Positions 1 to 63,635 of a stretch of DNA of 64,000 nt are shown one piece after another. The notes beneath the pieces were generated by a model. That model did not search any database. It saw only the letters and a program-made list of their open reading frames with translations, and was not told the origin of the DNA. Position numbers and translations under genes: made by a program. The stretch comes from a virus: the UHGV virus genome UHGV-1352889; one strand, written 5' to 3'. Numbering within the stretch: the first letter of the stretch is position 1; each line of letters begins with the position of its first letter.

Positions 1-196
1 ACTTACAATGTTAGGCTGGACTTAAAAGTTAGACGGCACTTACAATGTTAGGCTGGACTTAAAAGTTAGTCCAGACTTAAAAGTTAGTCCAGACTTAATA
101 AGTTAGTCCAGACTTAAAAGTTAGGCTGGACTTATAAAGTTAGACGGCACTTACAATGTTAGGCTGGACTTAAAAGTTAGACCGGACTTACAGGGG
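1..196. repeat. iteron-like tandem array, at least 8 copies of RGACTTAWAAGTTAG
   Basis: Copies at 18-32, 55-69, 73-87, 91-106, 110-124, 128-143, 166-180 and 184-192. Spacing is 18-19 bp in the middle and 37 bp in the longer units. Flanking GCTGGAC/GTCCAGAC inverted half-sites are present. Confidence 0.8.
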
Positions 197-290
197 AATG
201 TTTAAGAATCCTTAATAGTTATGAATCCTTAACTATCTTGAAGCCGTTGAAGCCGTTGAATCCTGATACCCATTGCACCCGCTATCCCAC

Positions 291-326
291 CACAACCACA
301 ACCACAACCACAACCACAACCACAAC
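291..326. repeat. hexanucleotide microsatellite (CACAAC)x6
   Basis: Six perfect CACAAC units are read directly. ORF 238..486 translates this run as poly-Thr, which is an artefact. Confidence 0.9.
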
Positions 327-351
327 TTCCCGATTGCCCTATTGCCCGAAA

Positions 352-367
352 ATGTTCCATGTGGAAC
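352..367. promoter_or_regulatory. 16-bp near-palindrome TGTTCCATGTGGAACA followed by TTTAA
   Basis: There is one central mismatch. A perfect copy, TGTTCCACGTGGAACA, lies at 4278-4293 with the same TTTAA flank. Confidence 0.5.
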
Positions 368-426
368 AATTTAAGGCCAAAAGATACCAAAAGATACCAA
401 AAGAATGCCCTACACTATATATAAAA

Positions 427-554
427 GGGGAACCGGGGGAACCGGGGGAACCGGGGGAACCGGGTGTGCCGTCTCTCTATATATAGGGGGAACCGGGTGT
501 GCCGTCTCTCTATATATAGGGGGAACCGGGGGAACCGGGGGAACCGGGGGAACC
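427..554. repeat. symmetric G-rich array: 4x GGGGGAACC, 24-bp unit, 1x, 24-bp unit, 4x
   Basis: Read directly. The 9-mers lie at 427-461, 486-494 and 519-554. Two copies of GGGTGTGCCGTCTCTCTATATATA lie at 462-485 and 495-518. Confidence 0.85.
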
Positions 555-591
555 GGGAAAGTTGTATGACACAATCATAAGTGCCTGATTC

Positions 592-3224: not shown

Positions 3225-3262
3225 GTTCCCCCTGAAAAGTTACGCCGCCCTACAAAAAGTAT

Positions 3263-3290
3263 TTGACAAGATAAGAAAATCCGATAAACT
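3263..3290 (+). promoter_or_regulatory. early promoter copy 3: TTGACA-N16-TAAACT, hairpin 3302-3320 (GCGGGAG ACAAG CTCCCGC)
   Basis: Cassette identity. It is preceded by the ACGCCGCCCTACAA motif. Confidence 0.65.
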
Positions 3291-3349
3291 AAAATCATCC
3301 AGCGGGAGACAAGCTCCCGCATAACCTCAAACCTAAACAACACTATATC

Positions 3350-4277: not shown

Positions 4278-4293
4278 TGTTCCACGTGGAACA
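4278..4293. promoter_or_regulatory. perfect 16-bp palindrome TGTTCCACGTGGAACA
   Basis: Read directly. It is followed by TTTAA, as is the copy at 352-367. Confidence 0.55.
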
Positions 4294-4434
4294 TTTAAAC
4301 CCCGGAACCCCCGGAACCCGTCAAATAACTCTAACCAAATAGAAAGAAAAAGTAGAAAGACAAAGGAATAATTCCCGCCCCCGGAATGCGGGGGATATCG
4401 GGTGCAACGGGTTCCGGGGATTCCGGGGTTTAAA
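4294..4434. repeat. long inverted repeat: 27-nt arms (TTTAAACCCCGGAACCCCCGGAACCCG / CGGGTTCCGGGGATTCCGGGGTTTAAA) flanking an 87-nt gene-less leader-like sequence
   Basis: Arms at 4294-4320 and 4408-4434 are complementary with one mismatch. The interior has an 18-nt exact match to 5913-5930 (CAAATAACTCTAACCAAA) and an internal hairpin at 4373-4396. No ORF follows. Confidence 0.7.
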
Positions 4435-4466
4435 GCTGAATAACTACGCCGCCCTACAAAAAGTAT

Positions 4467-4494
4467 TTGACAAGATAAGAAAATCTGCTAAAGT
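4467..4494 (+). promoter_or_regulatory. early promoter copy 4: TTGACA-N16-TAAAGT
   Basis: Cassette identity. It is preceded by the second copy of the 30-nt repeat. Confidence 0.6.
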
Positions 4495-4556
4495 ACATTC
4501 ATCAGCCACCGGAAGGGTGACAACTATATCAACAAAACAATAGAAAGAATAATACT

Positions 4557-4985: not shown

Positions 4986-5022
4986 ATAAGATACGCCTTT
5001 TGTCATACATATAAAAAAGTAT

Positions 5023-5050
5023 TTGACAAGATAAGAAAATCTGCTAAACT
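5023..5050 (+). promoter_or_regulatory. early promoter copy 5: TTGACA-N16-TAAACT, hairpin 5062-5079 (GCGGGG GACAAA CCCCGC)
   Basis: Cassette identity. Confidence 0.65.
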
Positions 5051-5123
5051 GAAATCATCCAGCGGGGGACAAACCCCGCAACAATAAACCAAACAACAAT
5101 AAACCGATAGAAAGAATAAGACA

Positions 5124-15046: not shown

Positions 15047-18000
15047 CTACTTCATCCGATTATGAATTTCCTCTGTACTCAATGCCCCATCAATCGGAAT
15101 GCTACCCTTCTGCATGAGGTTGATAATGAGTTGCTTCTGCTCTTCGATTAGGCGTTTGCCCTCGTCCGTGGTATTAGACTTCTGCAATTCACGGTTGAGC
15201 TTCGCGATAGCTTCACGTCCTGCTTGCGGACTAATGACGTAGGGCATGATGCCCTGCATGGCCGCGCCGTAGGTCTTGGCACTCATACCGGAACTCTCAA
15301 TCACGGAGTCCAGAACTTCCGAACGGATGGACGGGTCAAGCATGTTTGTAATTTCCGTAACGAACCGGACACTATTGACTAGCTTGGTGAAATTCTTCAC
15401 GGCATCCGCGGTTTCCACGGCTTCCATGAGTTCCACATCCATCCCGGATTCCATTCTCTTGTAGAAGTCCGGACGCAGAATGCTCATTCGCTTCGACTTA
15501 GTGACCGCCGCGTTGGCATTCTTTAACCCGGCGGCAAGGGCTTCGGTCAAATCCTTTGGACGACGGAGACCAGCACCGAACGTTTGCAACAAGTATGCCG
15601 CGGTACTCATGTCAGGTGTATCGCTAGCAAATTGTTTACCAGTCTTGACTGCCCAGCCGTAGAAGGGAATCTTTTTATTGGCAACCGTCGCAACTCGTTC
15701 AAGGGCTTGCCATGTATGTCCACTGCCAAACGAGGGGTTCAGTCCTGCGGCCAACAGGATTGCGTTGCCGACTGCCGGGAGAACGTTGACGCTTTCATCA
15801 CCGGAGAGGCTATGCTTGTAATTGAAGTCTTCCTCATTAAACAATTCAGAAGCGGCATTCAGAAGGAGGGATTCTTCGAGCACCGTATTTTCCAGCAGGT
15901 TTTTCAGTTCGGCAACCTTGTTCATCCCCCACTTGTCCACATCCATATCCATGAAGAGGCTGGGCAGGGTTTTGGCTAACACCTTGATGGTCTTGAACGG
16001 GTTCATGTATTCAAGGTTCAAATACTCGAACTCATGCCGCTTCATATCTATGATGCCAATCAAGTCCCCGAACTTATCATAGTCAGGAATTAGCCCACTG
16101 TCTGCCAGCTTCCTCATGACTTCCGCGTCGTCAATGATTTTACGGTCATCGTCATCTCCCAAGACACTGGTGATAATCTGTCGGGCAAACAAAGAAGAGA
16201 CCGCAGAGGTTGCAGAAATAGTTCCTACGGAACCAGCGGCGCGGAGGATAGCGCGTCCCAAGAGGTAAGCCCCCTCCTTCTTCATGCCGTTATTGATAGC
16301 CCACACACCATCTACCCCTTCGCCTATGGCGTGGCCAAGGTTGTAGACTACGGACTGGGCGGTATGGTACTGGAACATGAAGAACGGAGCCATAACTATG
16401 TTCAGGATTTTCACCCACGAAGGAGTACGCGAACCCGTGGGGAGCAAGCTCTTCACCATGTGGGCAGTATACCTATCCACATACGCATTCCAACTCTGGT
16501 CAGTCTGGCTCGCGTCAAGGAGTATCTGGTCCCGCGCATTGGGGTTGGCCTTGCCTTTCGCCCGTGCCAGTTGTACCTTTAATTGGGTGTCGGCAATCGC
16601 TCTCTGGTTAGTGAAGAGAACAATCTTGGCCGCCGCGTCCGGCAAGCCATAGGCGAAGGCCATCGTTTTGATGGGCCATGCTACCACTTTGCCCGCCATC
16701 TTGGCGGCATCCTTAGCCACCTCGCCCTTCGTCCGTTCCTGTTTCTCGTTCAGAGCTTCGGCGAGTTTGAAGAAGGAATCTTCATTCACTTCTTCGAATT
16801 CTCCTGCCATCTTACTGAACTCGTCAGACTTCCAGACGTTGCGCAGGAACTCCCCTTGACCTGCGTCCAGCAGACCAAGCTCTTGCCAGTAGCGAATCTT
16901 CTCGTTGTACCTGTCTTCCGCGGCCAGCAGTCTATCCGCGGAAGCCTGTGAACCAAGGTCCTTGCCTTTGGACAACCGCCGCAACTTACGCAACTGAAGC
17001 CAGTCCCCGACAAGGTTTGCGATGTCTTTACTCCCCGTGAATGGAAGTGCACCCGCATGGGTCATTTGAGCTACTGTACCATATAAGTTACGTAACGTGG
17101 AATTAGGACTAGCTATTAAGACAGAAAGGTTAGCCAAGCTACCCGCCTTACTCCCCCATCCTTGACCCTTGCCGGACTTCTGCCAGTACTTGCGCACCTT
17201 CTTATAGTCGTCCGTCCGACTGTTCATGATGTCGTCGCTCGGCCTGTAGATGTGATAGATGGCGTCGGCTACATCCTTGTCGGCATATAATCCGTTCAAC
17301 GCATTCTTCGTATTCTTCAAGGAGATTTCCACCATGTCGGGGGTACGGTTCGTGCTAGTCGCGGGTACGACTACACCCTGTGCCTTGAGCACGGTGGCGT
17401 ACTCGTCAGCAAGCAACTGGTTCACGGCAATCTTCGACTGCATGGATATGGTATTCTGCAATGTCCCAATGGCATCCCCAATGGTGAGGTCGCTAAGTTC
17501 ATACATAGCTTTCCTCTGCCATTCGGGCAAGCGTTTCCGCTGGGCCAGCGCATCTTCATTCGTCCTCTTCTTGGTCAGCACTTCGTCGATGGCCTTCATG
17601 GCATCGCTCACCGCAAGACGGGAGAGTTCCGGATATTGCAACACTTTCAAGTCGGTAGCGGAGATGACGTTGCCCATATTGTTTGCCCTCATGAGAATGC
17701 CCGCCTGACCCCGGAGAAGATTGAGCGTCTTGTCCAGTCGTTCTGCGGCATTCATATTCGGAGCGTTCCATATCTGGTCGATGGCCGAAGTCGGGATAGT
17801 GGGGATGGCCTTGTTCACTTCGGAAGCCACGGATGCCGGGGATTCAAGGCCGCCGATTTTGTCGGCAATCGTGTTTCCCGGAAGGCTGGAGAAGACATCG
17901 GCGAGGAAACTATCTCTGGCTTTCATGTCCAGAGTTTCTTTCATCTCTGCCATCTTTGACTTCGTGCGATAGTCTGCCTGTGCTATCATGCTCATGGCCT

Positions 18001-21000
18001 TGTTATACATGGCACTGATGTTGTGGCCGTCCCGCAGGTCCGCAAGCATTTGAACCCTGCCGAAGTTGTTCTGAATGAAGTCAAGAATTTCTCTGGTCCT
18101 GTAGTTCTTGGCTACACCTTCGAACAGGAGTTTATAATTCGAAGAGGCTCCCGGGGGAGCTGACACCAGCGGAAGTTTCAACTCGTCATGGAACGCGGCC
18201 AATGCTTGCATGTTGTCCAGCACTTGGCTTATGTTTTCGGACAACTCTGTCTGGTGCGCTTCGGCATGAGCGATTGCGGCTTCCTGCAACAACTTCGTCA
18301 GGCCATCATACTTCTGTGCCATCTCCCCGTTGGGATGTGCAATGATGTCCTTCATCGTCCGGGTGAAGTCTCCGGCATGGCGACCTACGGCCATGTAGGT
18401 GCGATGAAGATAATTCATCTCCGCGGCGTTGTTAGCCATACGGCTATCCCCAATGAGCTTGGCAATAGAGATTTGCGTCGCGGCAATTTCTTTACGGGAA
18501 TCGGCGATGACATTGTAGACCAGTTGACCTACAACCCCTTGTGACAGAAGCCATTGTTCCGCGGCATCCCGCTTAGCCATATACTCTGCCTGTTTCTGAC
18601 GGCGTGCATCGAGGATAGCGTTGTCCCGTTTCAGCCACACGGAACCAGCAGGAGTAGTTACGCCAGCACGAGTTACACCCGCTCTCTTTGTTGCAGCGTA
18701 GAAATCATCGTTGGCTTCCCGGATGATTTGTTTAGCTTCGGCCCGTGCCCTAGAGATGTCCTGAATCATAGGAGCAATGGCGGGGTGGTTTGTACTCTCC
18801 GCATAGAGGTAGTCGTTGCGAAGGTTGGACCACCTGTCCAGAAGTTCATCCATAGAGAAGGGACTGTCCACCTCGTTAATCATATCCGCGAGGTAGTTCT
18901 GCGTATCGCGGGCAAGACTAAAGTAGGAGGTTTCCAGATTGGCATCCCCTGTCGCGGAGATACGAGAGCCAAGGTCGGAGAGCGATTTGTGAATCTGCTG
19001 GGAGAGCATGGGGAGAGCCACCGTCTTGTCCAGCATGGCCCCATATCCCTTGACGCTCATGTCTTTAATCCGGCGCATCATGTCATTGATTTCCAATCGC
19101 CCTTCACTATTAAGCGCAAGGGAGTTGGCTAGACGCACCGCTTCCGCGTGCCTATTGACGGCATCGGTAACGGTCTTCTTAGCCAACGCGATACGGAAGT
19201 CGCGGGTCTGTTCGTGCTGGCGAACTTCTGCTTGGGCCTCTGCGTTAATGCGTGCAACGGTTTCAGGGTCAATGTCGTTGTCCATATTCCCCGACATGTC
19301 GAGAATGGACTTGCTCCATTTCTTTCGCGTGGCGGCATCCCAGCCCAGACTATCCGCACGGCGTTGAAGCATATCACCGATTTTGTCGATGCGTTTAATA
19401 CTGCGCTCGTATGCCGCATTCACGTTGGTCCTTTGTTCCAGCACAATCAGCTTCTGTTCCTCGGACTTAACATTGATGCCAGCTTTGTCCCAGCCCTTAG
19501 ACACGCCTTGCCATACGTTCTTAACACTAGTCACCCAGTTCCCGGCATTCGTACCGATAATCTCTGCACCCAGACCGAAGGACAGTCTTTGGGTCATGTC
19601 GGTCTCATAGGCCAACGGGTTGAAATAATCTACCTCATGGCTCATGGTGTAGTCCGTATCGTCTACTTTCCATGATGGGGTGCGAGGCATATCGAACCAC
19701 TTGCCGGGGGTTATGTCCGCGACGCGGTCCACATAGGAATCCCATTCAGCCGCATTCTTGGCGGCGGTGGTTCCGTCCATGTCGTCCGCAGTTTGCCGCA
19801 CATCTCTAATCAAATCCTTAAGCCATTCAATGAGGCGCACGTGAACGGGTCTCCTGCCCCCAGCCGCTTCGGCATAGCGAGCCAAATCCGTGAGGGTTAC
19901 ATTGTCTCCGCTCACCTCCGCAATCATGAAGTTCATGACAGGATTGGAGAACGCAACACTGGCAAATTCGTCCGGGCCACGGAGACCATAGTTGAGGTCG
20001 GAGGCAAGCGCGGCGATGGCATTCATCTCATTGATGTCCACGCTAGCTTCATACATAGCGGTGAGGCTATCAATGAATTGATTATAGTTCTCCGCAACTG
20101 CGCTTCTAATCTTGTCCATCCGCTGGGAGTAGTCCGCGTTAGTGGCACGAAGATGACGGTCAATGAGGTGGATGGCCTCATGCAGTACTGTTCCCGTTAC
20201 GCTCTCAATCGCATTGTCCCGGTCCATGTACAGGTCAATGACACCACCGACAAGCTTCCCGTCTGTTCCGTTCATGTAGGTGATACTGGCGGGGGAGGCT
20301 ATATTGGCAGGAGCATTGGTGGCTCGGATAGCCACGTCCAAACCAGCGGCATGCAATGCGCGGAGCACTCCGTCAATGGCCGCGGCCTGTGCAGGAGATG
20401 CCTTGACGCGAAGGTCCGAAAGGATGCCGTAGGCATTTACGCCCGTCCCGTCAGAGGGGAGATTGAGAGCGGAGACCCTATCCCCCCACTTGGTGCTGGG
20501 TGTCCCTCCCTCGCCCATGTTGTACATGCTTGCGTGCGGAGAGACGACAATGGTTTCTCCCGTGTTGCTCGTAACCAGCGGGGCATTAATCCCGGTCATC
20601 TCGTTCAAGGAGACGAGCTTGGTTCCGCGGTCAAGAGGTGAACCGGATGAAAGCCATGCCCCAGTGTTGGGGTCGAACGAAGTAATGGCGGCATCCAAGG
20701 TATCCACGGTTTCCACGGCTTCGGGGGTAACTACTCCCGTATCTACCATGTTAGTGACGGAGGCAATGGCTTGGTCCCTCTCCTTCCGTGCCGTGAGTTC
20801 CGGGGATTCCGTGGTAGCCGTGGGTTCCGTGGGCACCGGGGATTCCTTGGTAGCCGCGGCTTCCGTCAATCCGTTAATAACGTTAATGGCGGCATCGAGG
20901 TCTTCATCTCCTGTAGTAAGGATGGACAGGTCATCGTCTACTTCGATAACCTGAACCCGGTCTCCCATAGCATCAAGGGCTTCCGAAAGCATGGTGCGCA

Positions 21001-24000
21001 TGGTGTCGAGGTTTTCCTTATTTGGGAATGACAGGGTATTGGGCAGGTCGTTAATGGCTTCTGCCATGAATGAGCTTGCCGCGGCACTGCCCTCGTAGGT
21101 ATATATTTCGGAGGCCCGTTCCACTAGGTTGCGGAACTGGGTGAAATTGCTGATGCCCATACGGGTTGCGCCTTCCACCCATGCCTTCCGGGTTTCGTCG
21201 GAGACAACCAGACTTTCATGGGCAATGGATTTGTCCACCCATTCGCGGGCAACTTCCGCGGCATCCCCCTTCTCCCCGGCAATCTCGATAACCTTCTTTC
21301 CGGTTTCTACCAAGCTTTCCGGCACATTGTTTTTGGTAATGGCTTTGCCCGTTTCCTCGATGATGTTGCTCGCATCTTTCGTAATATCCGGTAGCATGGA
21401 AGTAGCATCCTTTACATCAAGGGTGGGAACGGCTTCGGTTTGGAAACGTATGTTCCCTTCCCCAGCTAACTGGCTACCAACGTAGCCGCCGATACCCCCA
21501 AGGAAAGCAATCTTTATAGCACCGCTAATCACTTGGTCAGTAGTGGCAATAGAGGATTCGGAGATTTCTCCGTTCTTCACCAGTTCAGTAAATGCCCATT
21601 CTTGGAATTCGTCTGCCAGTTCTTCGGTGGCTCCTTCCACTGCGGCCTTGCTCGTGCTGTACAGATAGGAAGCAACGGAAAGCGTCTTCTCCTTGGTAGT
21701 CATTTCAGACCACGGCTTGCTTCTCCATCTGGCCATCTTCTGTTCAAGGGTTTGGAATGGAGATTGACCGCGAAGGTTTTTAGCTCCAACAATCTTACGC
21801 ATGTAGGAATCCACACCTGCGCGGTTGTTGATAAGCGTACTGCCAGCGGAGACCAGAGCCGCACCAAAGAGGGCACGCCTACTGGCAATGCTCTGTGCCC
21901 GGTTCGTGTTCTCGGCAGTCGGTTCCTTCCCTTCCATCTCCCTGTCATAAATGGTATAGAAGATGTCGGAGTAAGCATTCGGTGCAACCTGCGAGATGAT
22001 GGTAAGGTTTACCCCAGCACCAGCTCCCGCCCTTTCAAGGCTCAAGGCCGCAAGGTTATTAAGGTTACGCTGAATAGTTCCACTCAAACGTCCCGCCAAT
22101 CCCGGACGGGCGGCAGGGACCAAAGCTTCTGCCCGCTTCGCTACGACGTTAGCCGTTGCCCTCGCGAACTTGGTCAGAGCGGTACGTTCCAATGCGCGGC
22201 CAGCAAGGCCACCGATTTTACCAGCCCCCGCGGTTGCCACCATTTGGTAGCCGAGGTTAGCGATTTCCGCAGTATAGTCTGCAAGGATGTTGCCTCGAAC
22301 AAGTTCAGCTTCCGCTTCCTGTTTTTTGTTCAGCTGGTCCCAGAGGGTGCGGGTATGTTCCATCGCCGCACGACTGCCGACTGCATTCTGCGCAAAGAGA
22401 AGAGCACCATAGGCGGCCCCTGTCCCAAGGTCGATGGCTTTGTGCGTGCCTATCTGGAACCCACGGAGAATAGGATTGATGTGAGCCTGTCCTTTCTCCT
22501 GCCACGCGGAGAGAATGTCCTCGTCGCTCTTGCCCGCTTCCTTCTGTTCATTGTAGAAATTCTTGAAGGAAAGGTACTTGTCCAGATACTTCATGCTTTC
22601 GGTCCAGATAGGGTAGACCCGCATGCCGAAACCAAGCCACGTATCATGGAGCGTTCCCAGCGTTTCATCTAATGCAATGTTGTCCTTCACAAGTTCCTGT
22701 GCGGATTTCGTGCGGAGGTTCTGGAACTTTTCAATGGTGCGATTAATGAGACCTTCGTCCGCGCCGCTAGCACGGAGAGCCTCAATGCTCTTGTCCATCA
22801 GCTTGTTGTCGTAGAGAGCATTGGGGTTCAGTTCGAGAGTGGCGTTCGTATCAACTTCCTTGGTGTGCGGGTTGTACGCAAAGAGACTGCCACGGCCTAC
22901 GCCCAAGTCACCCATACGTGCGGCATGGGAGAGGGAGTTGAGGGCATCGCGAGTATTTTCAATATGGTATTGGGCCATGTATTCCTTCAACCGTTCGGGA
23001 CCTACATCAAAAGAGGGACCCCCCAGTACGCCATACTCCCATGTGCCACGCCTCGTTCCCTTTCTCCACTCCATTGTACTTAATGGGTCAGAGGTCTTGC
23101 CCACACTATCTCCCGGCTGGAGGGTAAGCACATCCGCAATTTGTCCCCCCGTGCTTCGGTAGTTAGCCATTGCGCCCTTGACCGCATCCATGAGAGTGCC
23201 TCTCGGCGTAGCCTTGGCGACATAACCCTGAATCAGATTGGTTACTCCCGCTTGGTACAGGATGGATTTGGGAACCCCCGGAAACCTTGTAGCCACGGCT
23301 TCCAGTATAGCCTCACTCATGCCAATCTGTTCATCGGTCTCGAAGGTCAGGGGGCGGTCCTTCTTGCGACGAAGGTCCTTGGCAAGAACTTTGGCCCTTG
23401 CACGTATTGCGTCCATGTCAGCATTGGGGACTAAAGACAGAAGGGTAGAGGCCGCGGCTTCCGGATTGAGAATCGCGTCGCGAAGTTCGAGGTAGGGAAG
23501 GCCAGTGTAGTCTTCTTCGAGCCGACGTACCATTTTGTCTGCCGCCTCTATCTGTTCACGAATCCTATCCTCAACAGGCTTTTCTTTCTTTGAAGTTTGA
23601 TGCCTGGGGATATAGATATCACCGTTCCGGGAAAGGTAATCCCCGTAGTCGCGGACAAGCCGGAACATTTTGCTGGGAGACTTAGAGAGGTTGGCGAGTT
23701 CAGCAAAAACATTCCCAGTAAATGAAGGTGCTGAATCAGAGAATTCGCCAACGCCAAGCTCCCCCACGTTCGTCTGGCTGGGGGTTTTCTTCTGCACGTT
23801 CTCCGTCGAAGCGGCTCGGTGCTTATTATAGAGAGACTTAGCGGCACGATAGTTGTCAATGTCTTCGCGCCTAATCGTATTGATGATGCTTTCTATTTCC
23901 TCCGCAGTGTAAGCAATGGGTGCGCTCTCGATGGCTTCTGCTTTAGGTTTACCTGAATAATCTAGATGCGAGTTGAGGTAATCCTTCCGGGCCTTTTCCA

Positions 24001-24691
24001 TTGTGCTGGCAATGGATTTGGCCACCGCCTTTGCGTTACGGTTTCTGTCCGCGGCAATGGCGAGGAACTTTTCCGTTACGACGGGGTTCCCGTCCTCTCC
24101 CATGCCGAAGCCAAAGCGGGATAAGAATGCGGGTTGCTGGGGAGAAAGTTCGGAGGAAGAGACTGCGACGATGCCCGTGTTATTCGTAAGCTTTTTAATG
24201 GCGTCACTATCACCACGAGCGGCGGCCTTCAAATCAACCCGCGCATCTTCTCCGCTGTCTAGGTAGTTCTTTATGTAGTCGATTCCCTCAAAGGTGAACC
24301 CACGGTTTCCTTTGTTCAAGACATCAACGTCAGCCTTTTCCGCGGCGGTTTTCCATTGTTGTTCCGTATGGGCGCGGGTTTTTGTTTCCCATTCTACGTT
24401 ACGTGCGCGGTCTGCCTGTTCAATCTGTTTCTTCTGAAAGTCCTCAATGGACTTAGAGACATAGTCATCAAACTCCGCGGTAGCTCCTGCGGCTTTCTCC
24501 GCGTGGGTCTGTTTCTTTTCCGCTAACCTTTGCTCGCGGTCTAGTGCTTTCTGTGCTCTGTCTTCCTGTTTCTGTTTTTGCGTCTCTTGCCACGTGGCGT
24601 GCCTTTCTGCGGCTCGCTGTTCACGCGCGATACTGCTTGCCGACGTCGGAGCGAAGTCGGACATATTGGCGGTACTAAAGTCAATGGCCAT
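15047..24691 (-). CDS. giant virion protein (3214 aa) with HExxH zincin-like motif; function unknown
   Basis: One uninterrupted 9.6-kb ORF sits in the structural gene train. VLHEAIHLIDRH is encoded near 20155-20184, with a Glu 23 aa downstream. Charged coiled-coil regions and T/E/P/S-rich linkers are present. Confidence 0.7.
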   Translation of the reverse strand: MAIDFSTANMSDFAPTSASSIAREQRAAERHATWQETQKQKQEDRAQKALDREQRLAEKKQTHAEKAAGATAEFDDYVSKSIEDFQKKQIEQADRARNVEWETKTRAHTEQQWKTAAEKADVDVLNKGNRGFTFEGIDYIKNYLDSGEDARVDLKAAARGDSDAIKKLTNNTGIVAVSSSELSPQQPAFLSRFGFGMGEDGNPVVTEKFLAIAADRNRNAKAVAKSIASTMEKARKDYLNSHLDYSGKPKAEAIESAPIAYTAEEIESIINTIRREDIDNYRAAKSLYNKHRAASTENVQKKTPSQTNVGELGVGEFSDSAPSFTGNVFAELANLSKSPSKMFRLVRDYGDYLSRNGDIYIPRHQTSKKEKPVEDRIREQIEAADKMVRRLEEDYTGLPYLELRDAILNPEAAASTLLSLVPNADMDAIRARAKVLAKDLRRKKDRPLTFETDEQIGMSEAILEAVATRFPGVPKSILYQAGVTNLIQGYVAKATPRGTLMDAVKGAMANYRSTGGQIADVLTLQPGDSVGKTSDPLSTMEWRKGTRRGTWEYGVLGGPSFDVGPERLKEYMAQYHIENTRDALNSLSHAARMGDLGVGRGSLFAYNPHTKEVDTNATLELNPNALYDNKLMDKSIEALRASGADEGLINRTIEKFQNLRTKSAQELVKDNIALDETLGTLHDTWLGFGMRVYPIWTESMKYLDKYLSFKNFYNEQKEAGKSDEDILSAWQEKGQAHINPILRGFQIGTHKAIDLGTGAAYGALLFAQNAVGSRAAMEHTRTLWDQLNKKQEAEAELVRGNILADYTAEIANLGYQMVATAGAGKIGGLAGRALERTALTKFARATANVVAKRAEALVPAARPGLAGRLSGTIQRNLNNLAALSLERAGAGAGVNLTIISQVAPNAYSDIFYTIYDREMEGKEPTAENTNRAQSIASRRALFGAALVSAGSTLINNRAGVDSYMRKIVGAKNLRGQSPFQTLEQKMARWRSKPWSEMTTKEKTLSVASYLYSTSKAAVEGATEELADEFQEWAFTELVKNGEISESSIATTDQVISGAIKIAFLGGIGGYVGSQLAGEGNIRFQTEAVPTLDVKDATSMLPDITKDASNIIEETGKAITKNNVPESLVETGKKVIEIAGEKGDAAEVAREWVDKSIAHESLVVSDETRKAWVEGATRMGISNFTQFRNLVERASEIYTYEGSAAASSFMAEAINDLPNTLSFPNKENLDTMRTMLSEALDAMGDRVQVIEVDDDLSILTTGDEDLDAAINVINGLTEAAATKESPVPTEPTATTESPELTARKERDQAIASVTNMVDTGVVTPEAVETVDTLDAAITSFDPNTGAWLSSGSPLDRGTKLVSLNEMTGINAPLVTSNTGETIVVSPHASMYNMGEGGTPSTKWGDRVSALNLPSDGTGVNAYGILSDLRVKASPAQAAAIDGVLRALHAAGLDVAIRATNAPANIASPASITYMNGTDGKLVGGVIDLYMDRDNAIESVTGTVLHEAIHLIDRHLRATNADYSQRMDKIRSAVAENYNQFIDSLTAMYEASVDINEMNAIAALASDLNYGLRGPDEFASVAFSNPVMNFMIAEVSGDNVTLTDLARYAEAAGGRRPVHVRLIEWLKDLIRDVRQTADDMDGTTAAKNAAEWDSYVDRVADITPGKWFDMPRTPSWKVDDTDYTMSHEVDYFNPLAYETDMTQRLSFGLGAEIIGTNAGNWVTSVKNVWQGVSKGWDKAGINVKSEEQKLIVLEQRTNVNAAYERSIKRIDKIGDMLQRRADSLGWDAATRKKWSKSILDMSGNMDNDIDPETVARINAEAQAEVRQHEQTRDFRIALAKKTVTDAVNRHAEAVRLANSLALNSEGRLEINDMMRRIKDMSVKGYGAMLDKTVALPMLSQQIHKSLSDLGSRISATGDANLETSYFSLARDTQNYLADMINEVDSPFSMDELLDRWSNLRNDYLYAESTNHPAIAPMIQDISRARAEAKQIIREANDDFYAATKRAGVTRAGVTTPAGSVWLKRDNAILDARRQKQAEYMAKRDAAEQWLLSQGVVGQLVYNVIADSRKEIAATQISIAKLIGDSRMANNAAEMNYLHRTYMAVGRHAGDFTRTMKDIIAHPNGEMAQKYDGLTKLLQEAAIAHAEAHQTELSENISQVLDNMQALAAFHDELKLPLVSAPPGASSNYKLLFEGVAKNYRTREILDFIQNNFGRVQMLADLRDGHNISAMYNKAMSMIAQADYRTKSKMAEMKETLDMKARDSFLADVFSSLPGNTIADKIGGLESPASVASEVNKAIPTIPTSAIDQIWNAPNMNAAERLDKTLNLLRGQAGILMRANNMGNVISATDLKVLQYPELSRLAVSDAMKAIDEVLTKKRTNEDALAQRKRLPEWQRKAMYELSDLTIGDAIGTLQNTISMQSKIAVNQLLADEYATVLKAQGVVVPATSTNRTPDMVEISLKNTKNALNGLYADKDVADAIYHIYRPSDDIMNSRTDDYKKVRKYWQKSGKGQGWGSKAGSLANLSVLIASPNSTLRNLYGTVAQMTHAGALPFTGSKDIANLVGDWLQLRKLRRLSKGKDLGSQASADRLLAAEDRYNEKIRYWQELGLLDAGQGEFLRNVWKSDEFSKMAGEFEEVNEDSFFKLAEALNEKQERTKGEVAKDAAKMAGKVVAWPIKTMAFAYGLPDAAAKIVLFTNQRAIADTQLKVQLARAKGKANPNARDQILLDASQTDQSWNAYVDRYTAHMVKSLLPTGSRTPSWVKILNIVMAPFFMFQYHTAQSVVYNLGHAIGEGVDGVWAINNGMKKEGAYLLGRAILRAAGSVGTISATSAVSSLFARQIITSVLGDDDDRKIIDDAEVMRKLADSGLIPDYDKFGDLIGIIDMKRHEFEYLNLEYMNPFKTIKVLAKTLPSLFMDMDVDKWGMNKVAELKNLLENTVLEESLLLNAASELFNEEDFNYKHSLSGDESVNVLPAVGNAILLAAGLNPSFGSGHTWQALERVATVANKKIPFYGWAVKTGKQFASDTPDMSTAAYLLQTFGAGLRRPKDLTEALAAGLKNANAAVTKSKRMSILRPDFYKRMESGMDVELMEAVETADAVKNFTKLVNSVRFVTEITNMLDPSIRSEVLDSVIESSGMSAKTYGAAMQGIMPYVISPQAGREAIAKLNRELQKSNTTDEGKRLIEEQKQLIINLMQKGSIPIDGALSTEEIHNRMK

Positions 24692-34921: not shown

Positions 34922-34960
34922 GAAATTTTTAATTGGTATGACACAGCCGTATCACAACGA

Positions 34961-35015
34961 AGGAACCCACGGAACCCATTGTGGCCATTTGGCCGTGGGT
35001 TCCGTGGGTTCCGTG
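34961..35015 (-). terminator. long GC-rich hairpin (about 17-bp stem plus extension) built from GGAACCCACGG repeats
   Basis: GGAACCCACGGAACCCA...TGGGTTCCGTGGGTTCC inverted repeat with TTT loop. The following minus-strand tract is only partly U-rich. Confidence 0.45.
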
Positions 35016-57041: not shown

Positions 57042-58256
57042 TTATTTGATTTTGAGCAAAGCCATCGCGCTCGTCACTTCTTTCACTACTCCAAGTTCTT
57101 GAAGCTCTTCGAGTAAGGATTCCTTGGCTTCTTTCATCTCGGCACGTGTGGCTCCTTCAACTTTGTTTTTATCTACCACCATGTCAAGAAGCTTCGACAC
57201 AGGGAGGCGGGAGATGCTGTCCAGAATTTCCTCTGGGGAAATGTACTGCTCGACGTAGGCACGGAAGGCATCGTTGTCCACCTTTACGGTATTACCTCGC
57301 CGTGCATACTTCCATCCGGGAACATCAACGCCGCAAGCGAAGAGGGTCTTGGCATAGTCCTTATGCACCTTGTTGGCCTCCGCGATAATGTTCGCAAAGG
57401 AAAGAAGGGAGCCAAGGGTTTCCGGGTTGTCCATCGCCGTACCGACGCTATCAATCATCCCTTCGGCTAGGTCCTTGTCCTTCAACACTTTGAGCGAGAA
57501 GTTACGGGCCATGCTAGTCACCTTCTTACACCGGGCGAGACGGGAACAGTAGGGGCAGACGTGCGGAGAGGATGAGTAAGCGTAGGGGTTCTCCGCGTCA
57601 CGGCAATGGCGGGCAATGACTGCGGACATGTTTCCCCTTGCGGTAGCCTCGTCCATAGGGACTGCGGACATGTCGGTGGTGAACTTCGGCCCCTTACCGT
57701 CGCGGTAGAACGCCGCAATCTTCATGCTTTCGGTCTGGCTGGGTTGTACCACCGCGAGGATAATGCGCTTACATTCAGGGCGTTCTGCCATTTCCAGCAA
57801 ACCATAGTAGATGAACTGGGTATTCTCGGCAGGGTCAGAGACAGGGACCATCCCCATTTTGTAGTCGATAATCATGGAAGTATCACCATGCCGGACAAGA
57901 ACGTCAGCCGTTCCGGTTTGTGCTTCGTCGTCTGGGTTGAAGACGATTCCTTCAAACTTGTGTTCCGGGAGTACTTCTACCTTGTCCGTTTGTACCTCGG
58001 TTGCGAAGATGGACATGAGCCTATCCACCATGTTGGATGCCGCAGTGTAGAGGATGTGCTCATGCTTGGTAAGAAGGGATTCTGGGTTCTTGGTTTCGAG
58101 GGCCGCGTGAACACGGGTCCCAATGGCCGCCGGGGAGAAGTCATCCTCTTCTTCCTCTTTAGTCATGGGGCGTGGGACATATCCGGGACAGGTGGCGAGC
58201 AATGCCATCTTACTCGGACTGTACTTGCTGTGAGTGTTGGTTTCGTTATAGGCCAT
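57042..58256 (-). CDS. PD-(D/E)XK nuclease with C-terminal Cys cluster (Cas4/RecB-like, DUF2800-type)
   Basis: The D...IIDYKMG (D/E-x-K) core and CPYCSRLARC Cys cluster are present. It lies next to the polymerase and helicase. Confidence 0.55.
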   Translation of the reverse strand: MAYNETNTHSKYSPSKMALLATCPGYVPRPMTKEEEEDDFSPAAIGTRVHAALETKNPESLLTKHEHILYTAASNMVDRLMSIFATEVQTDKVEVLPEHKFEGIVFNPDDEAQTGTADVLVRHGDTSMIIDYKMGMVPVSDPAENTQFIYYGLLEMAERPECKRIILAVVQPSQTESMKIAAFYRDGKGPKFTTDMSAVPMDEATARGNMSAVIARHCRDAENPYAYSSSPHVCPYCSRLARCKKVTSMARNFSLKVLKDKDLAEGMIDSVGTAMDNPETLGSLLSFANIIAEANKVHKDYAKTLFACGVDVPGWKYARRGNTVKVDNDAFRAYVEQYISPEEILDSISRLPVSKLLDMVVDKNKVEGATRAEMKEAKESLLEELQELGVVKEVTSAMALLKIK

Positions 58257-60672
58257 TTGATGTTAATGCGTTAAAACAAATTTCTTTAATATTGAGTGAT
58301 TGTATGATTCGTTCTTCCACTGTACCAGAGGCAGTCACAATGTACTGCAAGGTGTGTGACTTAGCACCAAGACGGGCAATGCGTCCTTGTGCCTGAACCA
58401 GATTAACCAGTGAAAAATCTAAGTTAATGAGAGATGCTCTAGGGTTACTTCCTGTCGTATCGTGAAGTGAAACTCCTGCGCCCCCTGCACTGATTTGTAC
58501 TAAGGCTAATCTATTAGTATTGTTTTGGAATTTAGTTATTTCATTGTCTCGGTCATTCCCTGTAACTCGTCCACTTATCTCGGAGTAAGAGATGTCCTTA
58601 CCTGCTTCTTCGTTGATTAAGTTGCTTAGACTGTCTAGACTGTCTATGAACGCAAGGAAAATCACTACGCTATAGCCACTGTCTAAAAGTTCTACTGCTT
58701 TTTTAGAGAGGGCAGGAAGCTTAGCCAGTTCCGATTGCTGACGAAGCCGCAGGAGTTCCACGATAGCGGGAAGTTCGGTTCCCTTCTCGTTAGCCCGTTC
58801 GATGGACTGGTCCCATGATTTGTCCAGCTTGTCAAGTGCTTTCTGTAATTGTTTAATCTCTCTCATACCTTTCATGTCCACGTCCACGGACAGATATTCG
58901 ATTCTATTCTCTGGGAAGAAAGTGTCAAGCTTTTCCTTGTCAATCTCTGTCATAACCCCCGCAGTGTAGAGCTTTTGTTTCAGGCTCTCCATCATGGCGT
59001 GGTTACGTGGGTTGAGCTTGAACTCAATGCCTCCCCAGAAACAGTCGGTGCATCCGTGCATGCGTGCCCAGAGCCAGAACCCGCGCCGGGGGTCTTGAAT
59101 CCACTTGGCATACGTCGCGGGGACGCTCATGTCGAGAGGGGAGATAAAAGGTGTGGCAGAGAGCATAATCGTCGGAAGTCCTTGATGAGCCGCGGTTAAT
59201 GCCATTATGTTGCTCTGACTTCCATAGGTCTTGGCCTTGTGGCTTTCATCGAAAATGAGTAATGAGTTGTTAGGAAGATTCCATGTACCAAAAACAACAC
59301 GAGACTTAGGAATCTTTGTGGGGCGTTTGTAGTAGGGAGTACCGCCTCTGCGCACCTTCTCCCATGAGAGGACTTCTATATATTCTACTCCTTGTTGTTC
59401 GAAGGCTCGCTTCCATTGGGTCACGACGATGGCGGGACAGACTACTAACGGCTTGAGATTTAATGTGCTCGACGTTTCTATTGCGCATAAAGTATTGTGA
59501 GTAATTGTAAAATCTCCGAGCAAGCAATGCGGTTCTTCCTTTAGAGTGAATCCGAAGTACTCTCCTTTTCCTATAGGCTCTAGCTTAAAACTATCTCCCA
59601 CTCGCCCCATAGTTTCTCCCTGCCAAGCCTTCTGGGGAATTTGTTTTCTCTTTAGTCTTGTGGGGATTATATGGATAGGACCAGTTATAAGTATCAAGTA
59701 GCATTGCGACTTGGCATGGCCGTTCTGATGCCCCGCTTGCATTGAAGTTTTCAGGCCCAAGGAATTTGCTAAAAATTGAACTCCTTTCAGTATATCTTCA
59801 TTAGTATTACTAAATTGTAATACGTGTTTAGGAGCATAGTAACAACCATCTGTATCAATTAACCCTGCTAAAAGTTGGAGACGGTCTTCTCGACTTGCTG
59901 TTAAATAATTATGAAGGATTGTCTTATATGGAGTATCTCCTTGACATACTCTCCTAATTACTCGGTAGGGGGTTTCCGCATCTTCTTTGCCTTTAATGAT
60001 ATGCCATTGAGCACATTGAGTGGACACGCCGTTGAAGTACGGTCCCGTTAATTTCCACCCCTCCTTACGGCAAGTTTCCTCCACTGCCTCTTTAATTTCA
60101 TGGTCATTGACGTTAATTGATATTTTAGCTCCATACTCTCGGACGGAGGTCCCATCTCCCAAATAAGCTCCTACGAAATAAGGGTCCAACGGCAGTTCCT
60201 TTTCTTCAAAATCTACCGAAGCTGTCACGAGCCTTGCACGCTTCCTCAAAGTAGGGGCTATGGCCATAAACTCTGAAATTGTGTAGTCATGAAGTTTTCC
60301 CTGCACATTTCGCCAAAAAGGTCGTAAAGAAGGTTCTGCGGGACTTACCGCAAATTGAACCGTGAGAATATGAGAGGCATTACAGGTCCAAGGCTTACCA
60401 CGTCTGGGAATGACTTTGTACATTTCTTCCTCCCCGTGAGCTAAACTGGTAATTGTTCGAGGCTTGGAATCAGGTCCCATTAACTGGTCCCCTACTTTCA
60501 AGGTTTCTACCGGAACTATGGTTCCATCATATTTGAGCATAGGGGTCCCCTTCCCCCAGCATTTACCACATCCTGTGGCACTTGTGTTAATAGTATAGCC
60601 TTGAGTTTTAATGGCTTCTACCATCTCGTTTATACATTGTTGTTGCGGAGGGAAGGGAACTAGAGGTTTCAT
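58246..60672 (-). CDS. SF2 helicase (DExH) interrupted by an intein
   Basis: Exteins carry Walker A GCGK|T (restored across the intein), DESH motif II, LSATP motif III and QAQGRIARLG motif VI. The extein is 452 aa and the intein 356 aa. Confidence 0.8.
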   Translation of the reverse strand: MKPLVPFPPQQQCINEMVEAIKTQGYTINTSATGCGKCWGKGTPMLKYDGTIVPVETLKVGDQLMGPDSKPRTITSLAHGEEEMYKVIPRRGKPWTCNASHILTVQFAVSPAEPSLRPFWRNVQGKLHDYTISEFMAIAPTLRKRARLVTASVDFEEKELPLDPYFVGAYLGDGTSVREYGAKISINVNDHEIKEAVEETCRKEGWKLTGPYFNGVSTQCAQWHIIKGKEDAETPYRVIRRVCQGDTPYKTILHNYLTASREDRLQLLAGLIDTDGCYYAPKHVLQFSNTNEDILKGVQFLANSLGLKTSMQAGHQNGHAKSQCYLILITGPIHIIPTRLKRKQIPQKAWQGETMGRVGDSFKLEPIGKGEYFGFTLKEEPHCLLGDFTITHNTLCAIETSSTLNLKPLVVCPAIVVTQWKRAFEQQGVEYIEVLSWEKVRRGGTPYYKRPTKIPKSRVVFGTWNLPNNSLLIFDESHKAKTYGSQSNIMALTAAHQGLPTIMLSATPFISPLDMSVPATYAKWIQDPRRGFWLWARMHGCTDCFWGGIEFKLNPRNHAMMESLKQKLYTAGVMTEIDKEKLDTFFPENRIEYLSVDVDMKGMREIKQLQKALDKLDKSWDQSIERANEKGTELPAIVELLRLRQQSELAKLPALSKKAVELLDSGYSVVIFLAFIDSLDSLSNLINEEAGKDISYSEISGRVTGNDRDNEITKFQNNTNRLALVQISAGGAGVSLHDTTGSNPRASLINLDFSLVNLVQAQGRIARLGAKSHTLQYIVTASGTVEERIIQSLNIKEICFNALTSNGL
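59494..60561 (-). mobile_element. intein with double-motif LAGLIDADG homing endonuclease, inserted in the helicase P-loop
   Basis: It starts at Cys38 (CWGKGTPMLKYDG) and has block B NASHILT. The LAGLIDADG motifs are FVGAYLGDGTS and LLAGLIDTDGCYY. Block F EPHCLLGDF and block G THN are followed by Thr. Codon checks were done at 60559-60561 (TGC) and 60562-60570 (K, G, C). Confidence 0.85.
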
Positions 60673-63030: not shown

Positions 63031-63033
63031 AGT

Positions 63034-63294
63034 TTAGAGTGATATGATTATGAAGAAGAGAGTGACCAATGTTGCGGAGAGGCCGAAGATATTGATGTTC
63101 ATGTCCCGGTTACTCCGTTTCAATAGATGTGTGATGGTGATGTAGATGAAGGACCATACCCACAGAACGATGAGGACGAGAATGAGCGAGAAGATGAGGG
63201 AGGCCAGTAGGGGCATACCATTGACCAGAAGGCCCATAAATAGGGAGAGGTAATAGATGCCCATGTAGGGAGATAATTCTGCTAGGTCTTTCAT
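63034..63294 (-). CDS. small membrane protein (86 aa)
   Basis: Start chosen at the ATG at 63294 inside ORF 63034..63474. Two hydrophobic helices. Confidence 0.4.
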   Translation of the reverse strand: MKDLAELSPYMGIYYLSLFMGLLVNGMPLLASLIFSLILVLIVLWVWSFIYITITHLLKRSNRDMNINIFGLSATLVTLFFIIISL

Positions 63295-63299
63295 GATGT

Positions 63300-63623: not shown

Positions 63624-63635
63624 AAGAGGTTAGAC

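Follow-up and report, generated by a model that had tools for sequence, protein, structure and literature searches.

The first 590 nucleotides of the window, the whole 64-kb (64,000 nucleotides) stretch of viral DNA analyzed here, are almost certainly a cis-acting element, because six unique anchor sequences within them are 92–100% identical in 21 relatives while the adjacent gene is 64–95% identical at the DNA level. Our preferred but tentative reading, with a probability of roughly 40%, is that these nucleotides are a control platform to which proteins bind, upstream of the early operon. The region contains ten iterons of 18–19 nt, a palindrome, five other arrays of short tandem repeats and, around TATATATA units, two arrays of G-rich 9-mers. 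Nine of the 45 repeats that Tandem Repeats Finder reported for the window fall in its first 557 nt, i.e. in 0.9% of its length, a density well beyond what chance would give. An earlier description of this DNA, a sequence-only reading, had called the left end repeat-dense and free of credible genes. Every element it listed was found in its place, with several details corrected below, and the open reading frames over 1–590 are translated repeats. Since the arrays of relatives differ by units of 6, 8, 9, 10, 17 and 18–19 nt, no reading frame would be expected to persist. Rfam searches gave no match in the window at gathering scores, nor any in the contigs L014 or L001 at E-values up to 1, and a tRNA search found none. 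Comparing the region with phage and plasmid records by megablast and blastn returned nothing but a chance match of 27 nt. A 33-mer was absent from IMG/VR, but exact protein matches led to identical contigs.

The genome is that of an uncultured phage of the human gut that assembles as a circle of about 70.1 kb and has about 80 genes and no tRNA. It is therefore distinct from LoVEphage, which has 130 genes and 9 tRNAs (PMC8525569). In the reconstructed genome the non-coding control region comprises 67,767–70,076 and 1–591, and 1–590 is the right end of this roughly 2.9-kb stretch, which runs from the primase-helicase operon to the early genes. The window start had been proposed to be the physical end of the contig or genome. 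The second half of this proposal found no support: contig L014, 100% identical to the window, crosses position 1 and continues leftward through 2.3 kb of further non-coding DNA, the two together close a circle of 70,076 bp, and in relatives the region is internal to contigs of 69–70 kb. Other assemblies end in about a dozen different arrays, often within runs of identical 19-nt units, a scatter expected of assembly breaks. For this count we used only ends with stated record coordinates, together with L037 and L043, whose sequences are the two ends of one contig, since some locus ends are storage cuts (an interior cut, L023 versus L003). Judged from these assemblies, position 1 is plausibly a contig end and probably an assembly break, not a physical end. 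The variable-copy arrays explain why short-read assemblies of these genomes break at this spot.

The iteron array (1–190, + strand) consists of ten full 18–19-nt units starting at 1, 20, 38, 57, 75, 93, 112, 130, 149 and 168 and a degenerate last unit at 186, with some units in a 37-nt higher-order repeat. Of the at least eight iterons claimed before, ten are present as full units, but the consensus given for them, RGACTTAWAAGTTAG, fits five; the other five have a core that is one base longer. A better description is ACTTA-N3-4-GTTAG plus a variable spacer of 4–5 nt. As had been noted, the window begins inside this array, which extends 32 nt further left, with one more complete unit and half of a degenerate one. 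The motif occurs 11 times in the reconstructed 70-kb genome, always in this array and near no other promoter. Relatives carry from 1–3 up to at least 13 iterons, and their contigs often break within runs of identical units. More distant relatives in which the large terminase (TerL) is 86–89% identical lack the array and keep one degenerate copy, and it is likewise missing where PolA is 81–84% identical. In L058 the pentamers ACTTA and GTTAG are retained around a different unit middle.

To the right of the iterons, short tandem arrays alternate with anchors. The anchor GGAATGTTTAAGAATCCTTAATAGTTATGAATCCTTAACTATCTTGAA (195–242, +) contains two 17-nt units and the nested inverted repeats TTAAG..CTTAA and TAGTTA..TAACTA. 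Most relatives differ from it by 0–1 mismatches, some have an extra 17-nt unit, and its counterpart in L119 is a homologous array of four TTAAGAAACCTTAACTA units. The GAAGCCGTT tandem array (238–260, +) has 2.6 copies here and 0–7 in relatives, where the unit is altered in all copies together (GAACCCGTT, GAACCCCCG), indicating concerted evolution. The following block (279–349, +) joins the anchor CCGCTATCCCACCACAAC, unchanged in 20 of 21 relatives, to (CACAAC)6 at 289–326 and 2.6 copies of CCCGATTG at 329–349; relatives have 1–6 CACAAC and 0–8 CCGATTGC units. The palindrome AAAATGTTCCATGTGGAACAATTT with its core GTTCCAYRTGGAAC (349–372, no strand assigned) is kept in relatives including L058 and has two matches in the window, at 354 and 4279, versus 0.04 expected. 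It had been described as CACGTG-type, and a palindrome is indeed there, but it reads GTTCCATGTGGAAC and its center is imperfect. Next come 2.8 copies of CCAAAAGATA (377–404, +), an array found in most relatives, and the anchor CCCTACACTATATATAAAA (406–426, +), which includes the first (TA)4; the longest TA run in relatives measures 8–18 nt. Of the tandem repeats listed earlier, AAGCCGTTG (2.6 copies), (CACAAC)6 and the CCAAAAGATA array stand, whereas the two copies of GAATCCTTAA are not in tandem and belong to the 17-nt repeat.

Two G-rich arrays follow. The left array (427–464, +), composed of GGGGAACC, three GGGGGAACC units and GGG, and the right array (519–557, +), composed of four GGGGGAACC units and GGG, both scored as canonical G-quadruplex motifs in a pattern scan; they are the two strongest predicted in the genome and flank the (TA)4 units. 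Between them two GGGTGTGCCGTCTCTCTATATATA spacers enclose a single GGGGGAACC with a period of 33 nt (462–518, +), seen by Tandem Repeats Finder as a 33-nt repeat at 453–530 with 2.4 copies and 100% match. GGGGGAACC has eight exact copies at 435–554 and nine in the whole window, versus 0.92 expected. All nine G-rich 9-mers in 427–557 are on the + strand, and the AT core is (TA)4, i.e. 8 bp. The arrangement had been read as a mirror-like 4-1-4. The blocks are indeed parted by two copies of GGGTGTGCCGTCTCTCTATATATA, but the left block opens with AGGGGAACC, which makes the pattern (1 imperfect + 3)-1-4, and it is not conserved. Among 27 distinct versions of the region the spacer GGGTGTGCCGTCTCTCTATATATA occurs in 11 and is doubled in the window only, the remaining 16 having a single undivided array; L054 has one spacer copy and an expanded (CT)n. 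The right 9-mer array has 0–8 copies in relatives or is replaced by one to three GGGGAATCATGGATACC, and distant relatives display a looser layout of array, TATA spacer and array. TATATATA, also when followed by a G-run, is restricted to 1–590 and to the AT tract of the origin-like locus discussed below.

Several other ideas were considered. TATATATA followed by GGGGG resembles the T7-class promoter CACTATAGGGAGA, a candidate that we rejected as no single-subunit RNA polymerase was recognised, neither Pfam nor PHROG giving a match for the 3214-aa protein, and ACACTATA occurs only twice in the genome. A virion polymerase of the N4 type, as a case for terminal repeats, found no support. Neither do the 9-mers derive from collagen-like coding sequence: coding CCGTGG repeats give a Pro/Thr-rich linker, not Gly-X-Y.

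The order of the modules is identical in all 27 versions, while the copy number of every array varies widely, and in every relative the first early transcription unit follows the region directly. Between the near-identical assemblies L048 and L049 the only differences are a single CCGATTGC unit and a single TA unit. Relatives with TerL 86–89% identical keep the 17-nt array, GGAAC-type 9-mers around a TATA-containing spacer and the GTATGACA element, which is followed by a first early promoter with a 5' hairpin. Slippage and unequal recombination would generate and renew the arrays if the region were a largely neutral, hypervariable spacer in which only a few short anchors are functional. In favor of such a spacer are the wide variation of all arrays, the concerted change of units within one genome, length differences such as those between L048 and L049, and the origin of the iteron array as a clade-specific expansion of a single copy. 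We nevertheless regard a neutral spacer as very unlikely, as all relatives retain these arrays at unchanged positions, even L058 has ACTTA and GTTAG, the anchors are more conserved than coding DNA, and GGAAC-type arrays remain at this position in distant relatives despite a different unit sequence. The very fast change in copy number also fits weak constraint on the arrays themselves, which counts against a control platform.

Three motifs of the region recur beside other promoters of the genome. TGTCATAC has seven copies in the genome, five of which sit 13–17 nt upstream of a TTGAC -35 box. The left inverted repeat AGTTGTATGACACAATCATAA (560–580, no strand assigned) is an inverted orphan copy of it, kept in relatives including L114, L115 and L119, with 20 of 21 bases complementary to 1320–1340. 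There the right inverted repeat TTATAATTGTGTCATACAACT (no strand assigned) also provides the first early promoter (1352–1379) with its upstream element. An early intergenic element at 4279–4432 (+) is related to the region, containing the second palindrome copy and two CCCCGGAAC; about 100 nt past it, an inverted GGGTTCCGGGGATTCCGGGG lies 39 nt upstream of an early promoter. GGAACC-type 9-mer repeats are likewise found in three further locations: ahead of the early promoter at 4467, beside a promoter at 34,950–35,015 between late genes, and flanking the promoter of the 247-aa/primase operon.

The segment is a series of short tandem arrays whose fixed order is kept by strongly conserved unique sequences. 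Cooperative binding of phage proteins of the conserved backbone, or of host proteins, may occur at sites of four kinds: 9-mer arrays of the GGAAC type that flank the readily melting (TA)n, the palindrome GTTCCAYRTGGAAC, the orphan promoter-upstream element TGTCATAC and, in this clade alone, the expanded 18–19-bp iteron array. The bound complex would set or shut off the first early promoter or promoters and could also insulate the early operon from the neighboring origin and a candidate small-RNA unit. Protein binding, the identity of the binders and an output in transcriptional control are what we infer here. Operator and centromere arrays of this general kind are known from plasmid R1, whose parC has two sets of five iterons, and from P1, whose C1 operators are scattered at promoters. 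As in these systems, phased short repeats flank a TA-rich core and motif families are reused beside several promoters. Unlike them, 1–590 has no evident sigma-70-type promoter between the arrays, none being found within the arrays by a scan or a stricter pattern; the nearest promoter is 150–700 nt away, and no ParR, ParB or repressor gene was recognised. A winged-helix protein indicated by a pooled scan was not among the 30 proteins scanned singly. For the early promoter of a lytic phage, an upstream region of 600 nt with multiple arrays would be unusual, another point against a control platform.

The two inverted repeats enclose a cassette (581–1319, - strand) with a 196-aa gene (592–1182) and its own promoter (about 1274–1247). 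The cassette is inverted in the window strain compared with all relatives examined, and in the strain's own sample the inverted orientation alone was seen. An invertible segment of the Gin/Hin/Cin type would agree with the inverted repeats, but the relatives all share one orientation and a search for a recombinase family for this cassette found none. The inversion leaves the cassette promoter facing the arrays from about 700 nt. As this strain was assembled from several samples, a strict function as promoter-proximal operator is not essential. The 196-aa protein has no Pfam or PHROG match, and its AlphaFold model is unreliable (pLDDT 60, pTM 0.36), too poor for a structure search.

Replication was another function suggested by the repeats. 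The neighboring module encodes a VapE-like primase-helicase, an enzyme of the SF3 class. The anatomy of a classical origin, however, lies about 2 kb left of the region, outside the window, at roughly 67,787–68,306 of the reconstructed genome. Here we find eight of the ten genome copies of TGAGACA, mostly in opposed orientation across the least stable AT tract. Measured over 100 nt, duplex stability reaches its sole extreme minimum of -99 kcal/mol at 68,041, compared with a genome mean of -141.6 and values of -124 to -150 kcal/mol in 1–590. The locus also has the GC-skew extremum, and the non-coding block as a whole coincides with the cumulative GC-skew maximum and with the divergence of the two transcription blocks. 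SaPI/PICI-type origins lie beside pri-rep genes and carry two sets of short iterons in opposed orientation that flank a central AT-rich tract, at least two iterons per side; the iterons are specific to the neighboring initiator-helicase and therefore vary with it (PMC9371898). This two-sided arrangement is present in the opposed TGAGACA copies around 68,041–68,135, and the AT-tract heptamers follow the replication proteins, being TGAGACA, AAGGACC, GTTGTTA or TAACAGA by lineage. The 1–590 arrays share with such origins short direct repeats near (TA)n and an adjoining VapE-like module, but their GGGGGAACC units are one-directional, the AT core has 8 bp, and they remain constant through swaps of the replication module. 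They are unchanged across lineages whose primases are 27–100% identical. As this includes lineages with a primase-helicase only 27–31% identical and different heptamers, the arrays are not initiator sites. The earlier suggestion of an origin in 1–590 is thereby weakened; sequence comparison places the main replication origin probably at the locus 2 kb to the left.

The region could still be an accessory or secondary element of replication, with the iterons and the 9-mers around (TA)n binding a conserved replication or host factor and serving the main origin, at a distance of 2 kb, as second origin, enhancer, copy-number control site or fork barrier; crr of P4 and the family of repeats in EBV oriP are parallels. 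In accordance with this, the 18–19-bp direct repeats have the typical length of iterons and number 11 copies, TATATATA followed by a G-run is shared with the AT tract alone, the strongest quadruplex motifs flank (TA)4, the non-coding block is shared with the origin-like locus at the skew maximum and transcription divergence, and the VapE-like module adjoins. Nonetheless, we consider an accessory element unlikely: it is the AT-tract heptamers and not the arrays that co-vary with the replication module, and the iterons are missing where PolA is still 81–84% identical. In P4 ori/crr and in oriP both parts share one motif, whereas the motifs of 1–590 differ from the AT-tract heptamers. The repeats furthermore all point in one direction around an AT core of only 8 bp, their 18–19-bp spacing is out of helical phase, and a search of the entire non-coding region showed no TTATCCACA-like cluster of DnaA boxes. 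Plasmid and phage origins of the iteron type (lambda ori, P1 oriR, F, R6K), which have several direct repeats of 17–22 bp, resemble the region in its many non-coding tandem direct repeats of 18–19 bp, here 11 full units with ten in the window. They differ in that 1–590 is without an adjacent AT-rich unwinding tract or DnaA boxes, and in that its units abut at 18–19 bp rather than at about two helical turns and form a clade-specific array; a cognate Rep gene was not recognised. A further alternative, which we hold to be very doubtful, is a composite DNA switch of a new kind: G-quadruplex-forming 9-mer arrays, all on one strand, flanking the meltable (TA)n, with a clade-specific 'family of repeats' beside them, would couple the first early promoter to the VapE-served origin in a manner dependent on structure or supercoiling. 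Such a switch could act as a second initiation site or as a barrier to forks or transcription, and array copy number would tune its output strain by strain.

The position of the region also invites comparison with genome ends. Strong sigma-70-like early promoters adjoin it and read away from it, resembling the left ends of T7-like phages, and short repeats lie beside the termini of T7, T5 and herpesviruses; the P1 pac site consists of four plus three hexamers. If the region served in packaging, as a physical terminus or both (pac, cos or the border of a direct terminal repeat), the arrays would be the target of the terminase, which would cut close by, possibly at a (TA)n unit, and the early genes would be first into the cell. 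Consistent with this, the region has no second copy in the genome, has a direction and is strongly conserved, and TerL is 98–100% identical across lineages that swapped replication modules. Two genes downstream of the terminase there is also an HNH-endonuclease match, and HNH genes beside terminase genes are associated with cos-type packaging; this match is, however, weak and without Pfam support. Packaging or a terminus here is nevertheless quite improbable in our view, since assemblies traverse the region and the circle closes, and contig ends scatter over the arrays and cluster at the AT tract as well, these being the limits of DNA that co-occurring strains have in common. About 14.5 kb separates the region from the terminase gene, and a small subunit of the terminase was not recognised; moreover, the iterons are missing where TerL is still 86–89% identical. 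The anchors are conserved in the clade in which TerL is 96–100% identical. Hypervariable copy number is also not usual for packaging sites. The 4-1-4 symmetry is strain-specific, the double spacer behind it occurring in the window alone, whereas a P1-type pac has conserved symmetric short repeats on both sides of the cut. What the region has in common with the T7 repeats by the terminal repeat, the 4+3 hexamers of P1 pac, the T5 injection-stop region and herpesvirus pac1 are dense non-coding short repeats and palindromes beside the first-expressed genes and G-runs flanking an A/T-rich core. The circular assemblies, the lack of a conserved symmetric layout and the lack of similarity to phage or plasmid records set it apart.

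The analysis yields a first map of the phage's control DNA, with a likely origin bearing lineage-specific repeats, a separate conserved multi-array platform beside the early genes and, between the two, a candidate small RNA at about 68,650–68,815. The swaps of the replication module are a natural experiment that separates origin-specific from backbone-specific repeats, thus telling experimenters which DNA to test with which proteins. The variable-copy arrays are possible strain markers. No relative was found among 50,697 deposited phage genomes, in which TerL had no match and PolA was at most 27% identical, nor in GTDB species genomes searched with the anchor and TerL, and a sequence comparison of TerL with solved structures gave no match. 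The phage nevertheless appears widespread in public metagenomes, mostly of the human gut where the source is named: for the neighboring 196-aa protein, 90%-identity clusters contain 411 homologues at E ≤ 0.001, encoded on contigs of 69–71 kb.

Window 1-590 is a genuine conserved cis-element of an uncharacterised, common gut phage. Within the first 557 nt fall 9 of the 45 rows that Tandem Repeats Finder returns for the 64-kb window, and the repeats described in the sequence-only reading are present in the first 590 nt far above chance. The region opens with ten full iteron units with a period of 18-19 nt and the core ACTTA-N3-4-GTTAG, in which the spacer varies between 4 and 5 nt; a whole-genome scan confined this motif to the one array. 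After the iterons lies a 48-nt unique stretch that includes a 17-nt repeat, followed by the GAAGCCGTT array (2.6 copies), CCGCTATCCCACCACAAC and (CACAAC)6, the CCCGATTG array (2.6 copies), the palindrome GTTCCATGTGGAAC (two window copies vs 0.04 expected), the CCAAAAGATA array (2.8 copies) and CCCTACACTATATATAAAA. The last module consists of G-rich 9-mers with eight exact copies of GGGGGAACC, which occurs 9 times in the whole window vs 0.92 expected. Two copies of GGGTGTGCCGTCTCTCTATATATA split these 9-mers into blocks, and both 9-mer blocks are, in a pattern scan, the strongest of the genome's six canonical G-quadruplex motifs. As had been proposed, there is no credible gene here, the overlapping ORFs merely translating the repeats.

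Comparison of 27 distinct versions of the region revealed a constant module order in all of them and widely varying copy numbers. Iterons range from 1-3 up to at least 13 copies, GAASCCGTT from 0 to 7, (CACAAC) from 1 to 6 and (CCGATTGC) from 0 to 8; the longest (TA) run measures 8-18 nt, and GGGGRAACC is present in 0-8 copies or replaced by one to three copies of a 17-nt variant unit. Array units change in concert within one genome, and two near-identical assemblies (L048 and L049) differ solely in two array lengths. The mirror-like 4-1-4 pattern noticed earlier is present as (1 imperfect + 3)-1-4; however, the spacer that creates it is carried by 11 of the 27 versions and doubled in the window alone, so conservation does not extend to the exact symmetry. 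An intermediate relative, L058, keeps all modules with a different iteron centre (ACTTA-CCGA-GTTAG). Across replication-module lineages the anchors, the unique sequences between the arrays, are 92-100% identical; the adjoining gene is 64-95% identical in DNA, and the terminase large subunit (TerL) is 98-100% identical in those contigs. Since the arrays are conserved across these lineages, they are not the sites of a lineage-specific initiator. That 1-590 is a neutral spacer of variable copy number is, in our view, very unlikely.

The suggestion that the window starts at a genome end was not supported. A contig of 100% identity, NODE_92_length_70139 (L014), matches window 1-527 and 62,647-64,000, runs through position 1 and, joined to the window, closes a 70,076-bp circle. 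The offset between window and record coordinates is constant at 464, from which it is inferred that the record's two ends overlap by 63 nt inside the 33-nt repeat. The iteron array extends another 32 nt beyond position 1 on the left, approximately 2.3 kb of further non-coding DNA lies past its end, and in relatives the region is interior to 53-70-kb contigs. Contig ends within the region are scattered over runs of identical 19-nt iterons, the GGGGGAACC array, the TTGCACCCA array, the position after (CACAAC)6 and the palindrome; 2 kb leftward, a second cluster falls at the AT tract, which is rich in (TA)n. Both clusters mark the borders of a DNA segment common to strains co-occurring in one sample, and for this reason the contig ends are most plausibly assembly-graph breaks. 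A packaging site or terminus at 1-590 is unlikely: the region is conserved along with TerL, is directional and adjoins the early genes, but the assemblies give no evidence of DNA ends, and the iterons are lost where TerL is 86-89% identical. Terminal redundancy may mask a fixed terminus.

The region is part of a larger non-coding block (67,767-70,076 plus 1-591; coordinates beyond 64,000 refer to the circle) between the leftward operon of a 247-aa protein and a VapE-like primase-helicase of 956 aa and the rightward early genes. Within this block the genome's duplex stability per 100 nt reaches its minimum (68,041-68,135; -99 kcal/mol, mean -141.6, sd 7.6), and the cumulative GC-skew maximum lies at 68,148. 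Eight of the ten genome copies of TGAGACA fall inside 67,787-68,306 (L014 2817-2298, minus strand), mostly on the plus strand left of the AT tract and on the minus strand right of it. Origins of SaPIs have two opposed sets of short iterons around an AT-rich centre, adjoining pri-rep genes (PMC9371898), a layout that this locus matches. The heptamer varies together with the replication proteins across lineages. TGAGACA (window, L016) accompanies a 247-aa protein of 96-100% and a primase of 99-100% identity, AAGGACC (L008, L035) accompanies 45-46% and 86-87%, and GGACAA in L017 comes with an 85% identical 247-aa protein. GTTGTTA (L001, L003, L019, L026, L032, L037) and TAACAGA (L007) occur with primases of ~27% and 31% identity, respectively, and no homologue of the 247-aa protein.

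The primary origin thus predicted from sequence most likely lies outside the window, 2 kb from 1-590. The idea that 1-590 is itself this origin is not supported, as heptamers, AT tract and GC-skew maximum are all 2 kb away. An accessory or secondary origin element remains doubtful: TATATATA and a G-run are shared with the AT tract only and the repeats have iteron length, yet the arrays show no co-variation with the replication module and an unwinding tract is absent.

We consider 1-590 best explained as a conserved control platform that binds proteins and lies upstream of the early operon, with a probability of roughly 40%. This reading rests on the selection acting on the anchors, the fixed position beside the first early promoter, the independence from the replication module and the motifs in common with other promoter-proximal DNA. 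The genome holds seven copies of TGTCATAC, which forms the core of the 21-nt inverted repeat found at 560-580. Five of them are followed 13-17 nt downstream by a TTGAC -35 box, whereas the 564-571 copy is an orphan in inverted orientation. A smaller set of the motifs recurs in the early intergenic stretch 4279-4432, where the palindrome GTTCCACGTGGAAC at 4279 is followed by two copies of CCCCGGAAC, and the inverted G-rich partner GGGTTCCGGGGATTCCGGGG precedes the early promoter at 4467 by 39 nt. Between late genes (34,950-35,015), beside a promoter, arrays of GGAACCCACGG occur as an inverted pair, and the 247-aa/primase operon has its promoter between the arrays of another pair. Instead of an iteron array, the more distant relatives L114, L115 and L119 (TerL 86-89%, family-A DNA polymerase 81-84% identical) have one degenerate copy. 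All three retain the TTAAGAAACCTTAACTA array and GGAAC-type 9-mer arrays, which in L114 and L119 flank a TATA-containing spacer on both sides. Also retained is the GTATGACA element, with the first early promoter and the promoter's 5' hairpin downstream of it. The control-platform reading is weakened by the lack of a binder for 1-590 among the proteins scanned, by the iteron motif being unique to its array and by the cassette of the nearest promoter, inverted in the window's strain without apparent harm.

This cassette (581-1319) comprises the minus-strand gene of the 196-aa protein (592-1182) together with that gene's own promoter. It is flanked by 21-nt inverted repeats, one at 560-580 and one at 1320-1340, in which 20 of 21 positions are complementary. 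Its orientation is opposite to that in every relative examined, including one with a 91% identical protein, and its inner flanks are exactly exchanged. Protein-family scans found no invertase or recombinase gene for it, and in the sample carrying the window strain the inverted orientation alone was seen. The inversion looks like a single recombination between short inverted repeats and not a programmed switch.

Five near-identical early promoters (1342-1410, 1847-1915, 3253-3320, 4459-4520 and 5013-5080) share the consensus AAAAAGTATTTGACAAGATAAGAAAATCTGnTAAAyT. At least four of them have a hairpin ~10 nt after the -10 box, with a stem that differs in sequence yet pairs and a loop that keeps ACAA (GCGGGAG-ACAAG-CTCCCGC; GCGGGG-GACAAA-CCCCGC). 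The loop of P22 boxB is GACAA, which these loops resemble; as part of the 5' RNA, the hairpin could serve antitermination or stabilise the transcript. Between the two late genes at 34,950-35,015, GGAACCCACGGAACCC and an inverted copy lie 16 nt apart, and ~60 nt further along comes a promoter whose upstream element is TGTCATAC; the pair could act as an operator or form a terminator-like hairpin.

Outside the window, the non-coding block also contains a candidate small RNA of ~170 nt (~68,650-68,815; L014 1955-1785, minus strand) with the promoter TTGACT-N16-TATGTT, preceded by TG, a 13-bp terminator hairpin with U-run and a fold z-score of -4.46. It has no match in Rfam and is 95-99% identical in 20 relatives' loci and 89% in one more, far above the conservation of the flanking genes. 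Six copies of a GCAnCGGRAAYGGTRY-like motif ~45-50 nt apart (L014 ~1270-1020, minus strand) are a further candidate family of binding sites; one relative's scaffold has an N-gap there. A sigma-70-like leftward promoter (68,416-68,389) reads into the origin-like locus.

The window is phage DNA, with small rightward genes from 1450 to ~14,500 and a long leftward block from ~14,400 to beyond 64,000 that encodes a 3214-aa ORF, TerL, an exonuclease, an intein-bearing helicase and the family-A DNA polymerase. Both blocks have sigma-70-like promoters with an extended -10 box. tRNA and Rfam scans of the window gave no match, and protein-family scans found no recombinase, ParB or RNA polymerase families. 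Searches of deposited phages and plasmids and of GTDB genomes returned no relative. In public metagenomes, 411 homologues of the 196-aa protein were recovered at E<=0.001 from 69-71-kb contigs; the lineage is frequent there, with named sources mostly human gut. Shine-Dalgarno sequences are absent from the genes, which have A-rich leaders such as AATAGAAAGAA; the promoters are nonetheless sigma-70-like. The 3214-aa ORF (15,047-24,691), which ends the leftward block, is without Pfam or PHROG match, as are three further large proteins scanned from this block (963, 756 and 715 aa). The primase N-terminus has a weak BT4734-like match. The 808-aa helicase (58,246-60,672) carries intein and LAGLIDADG homing-endonuclease domains, and PHROG 'terminase' matches at its residues 13-312 are probably an intein signal, not a terminase.
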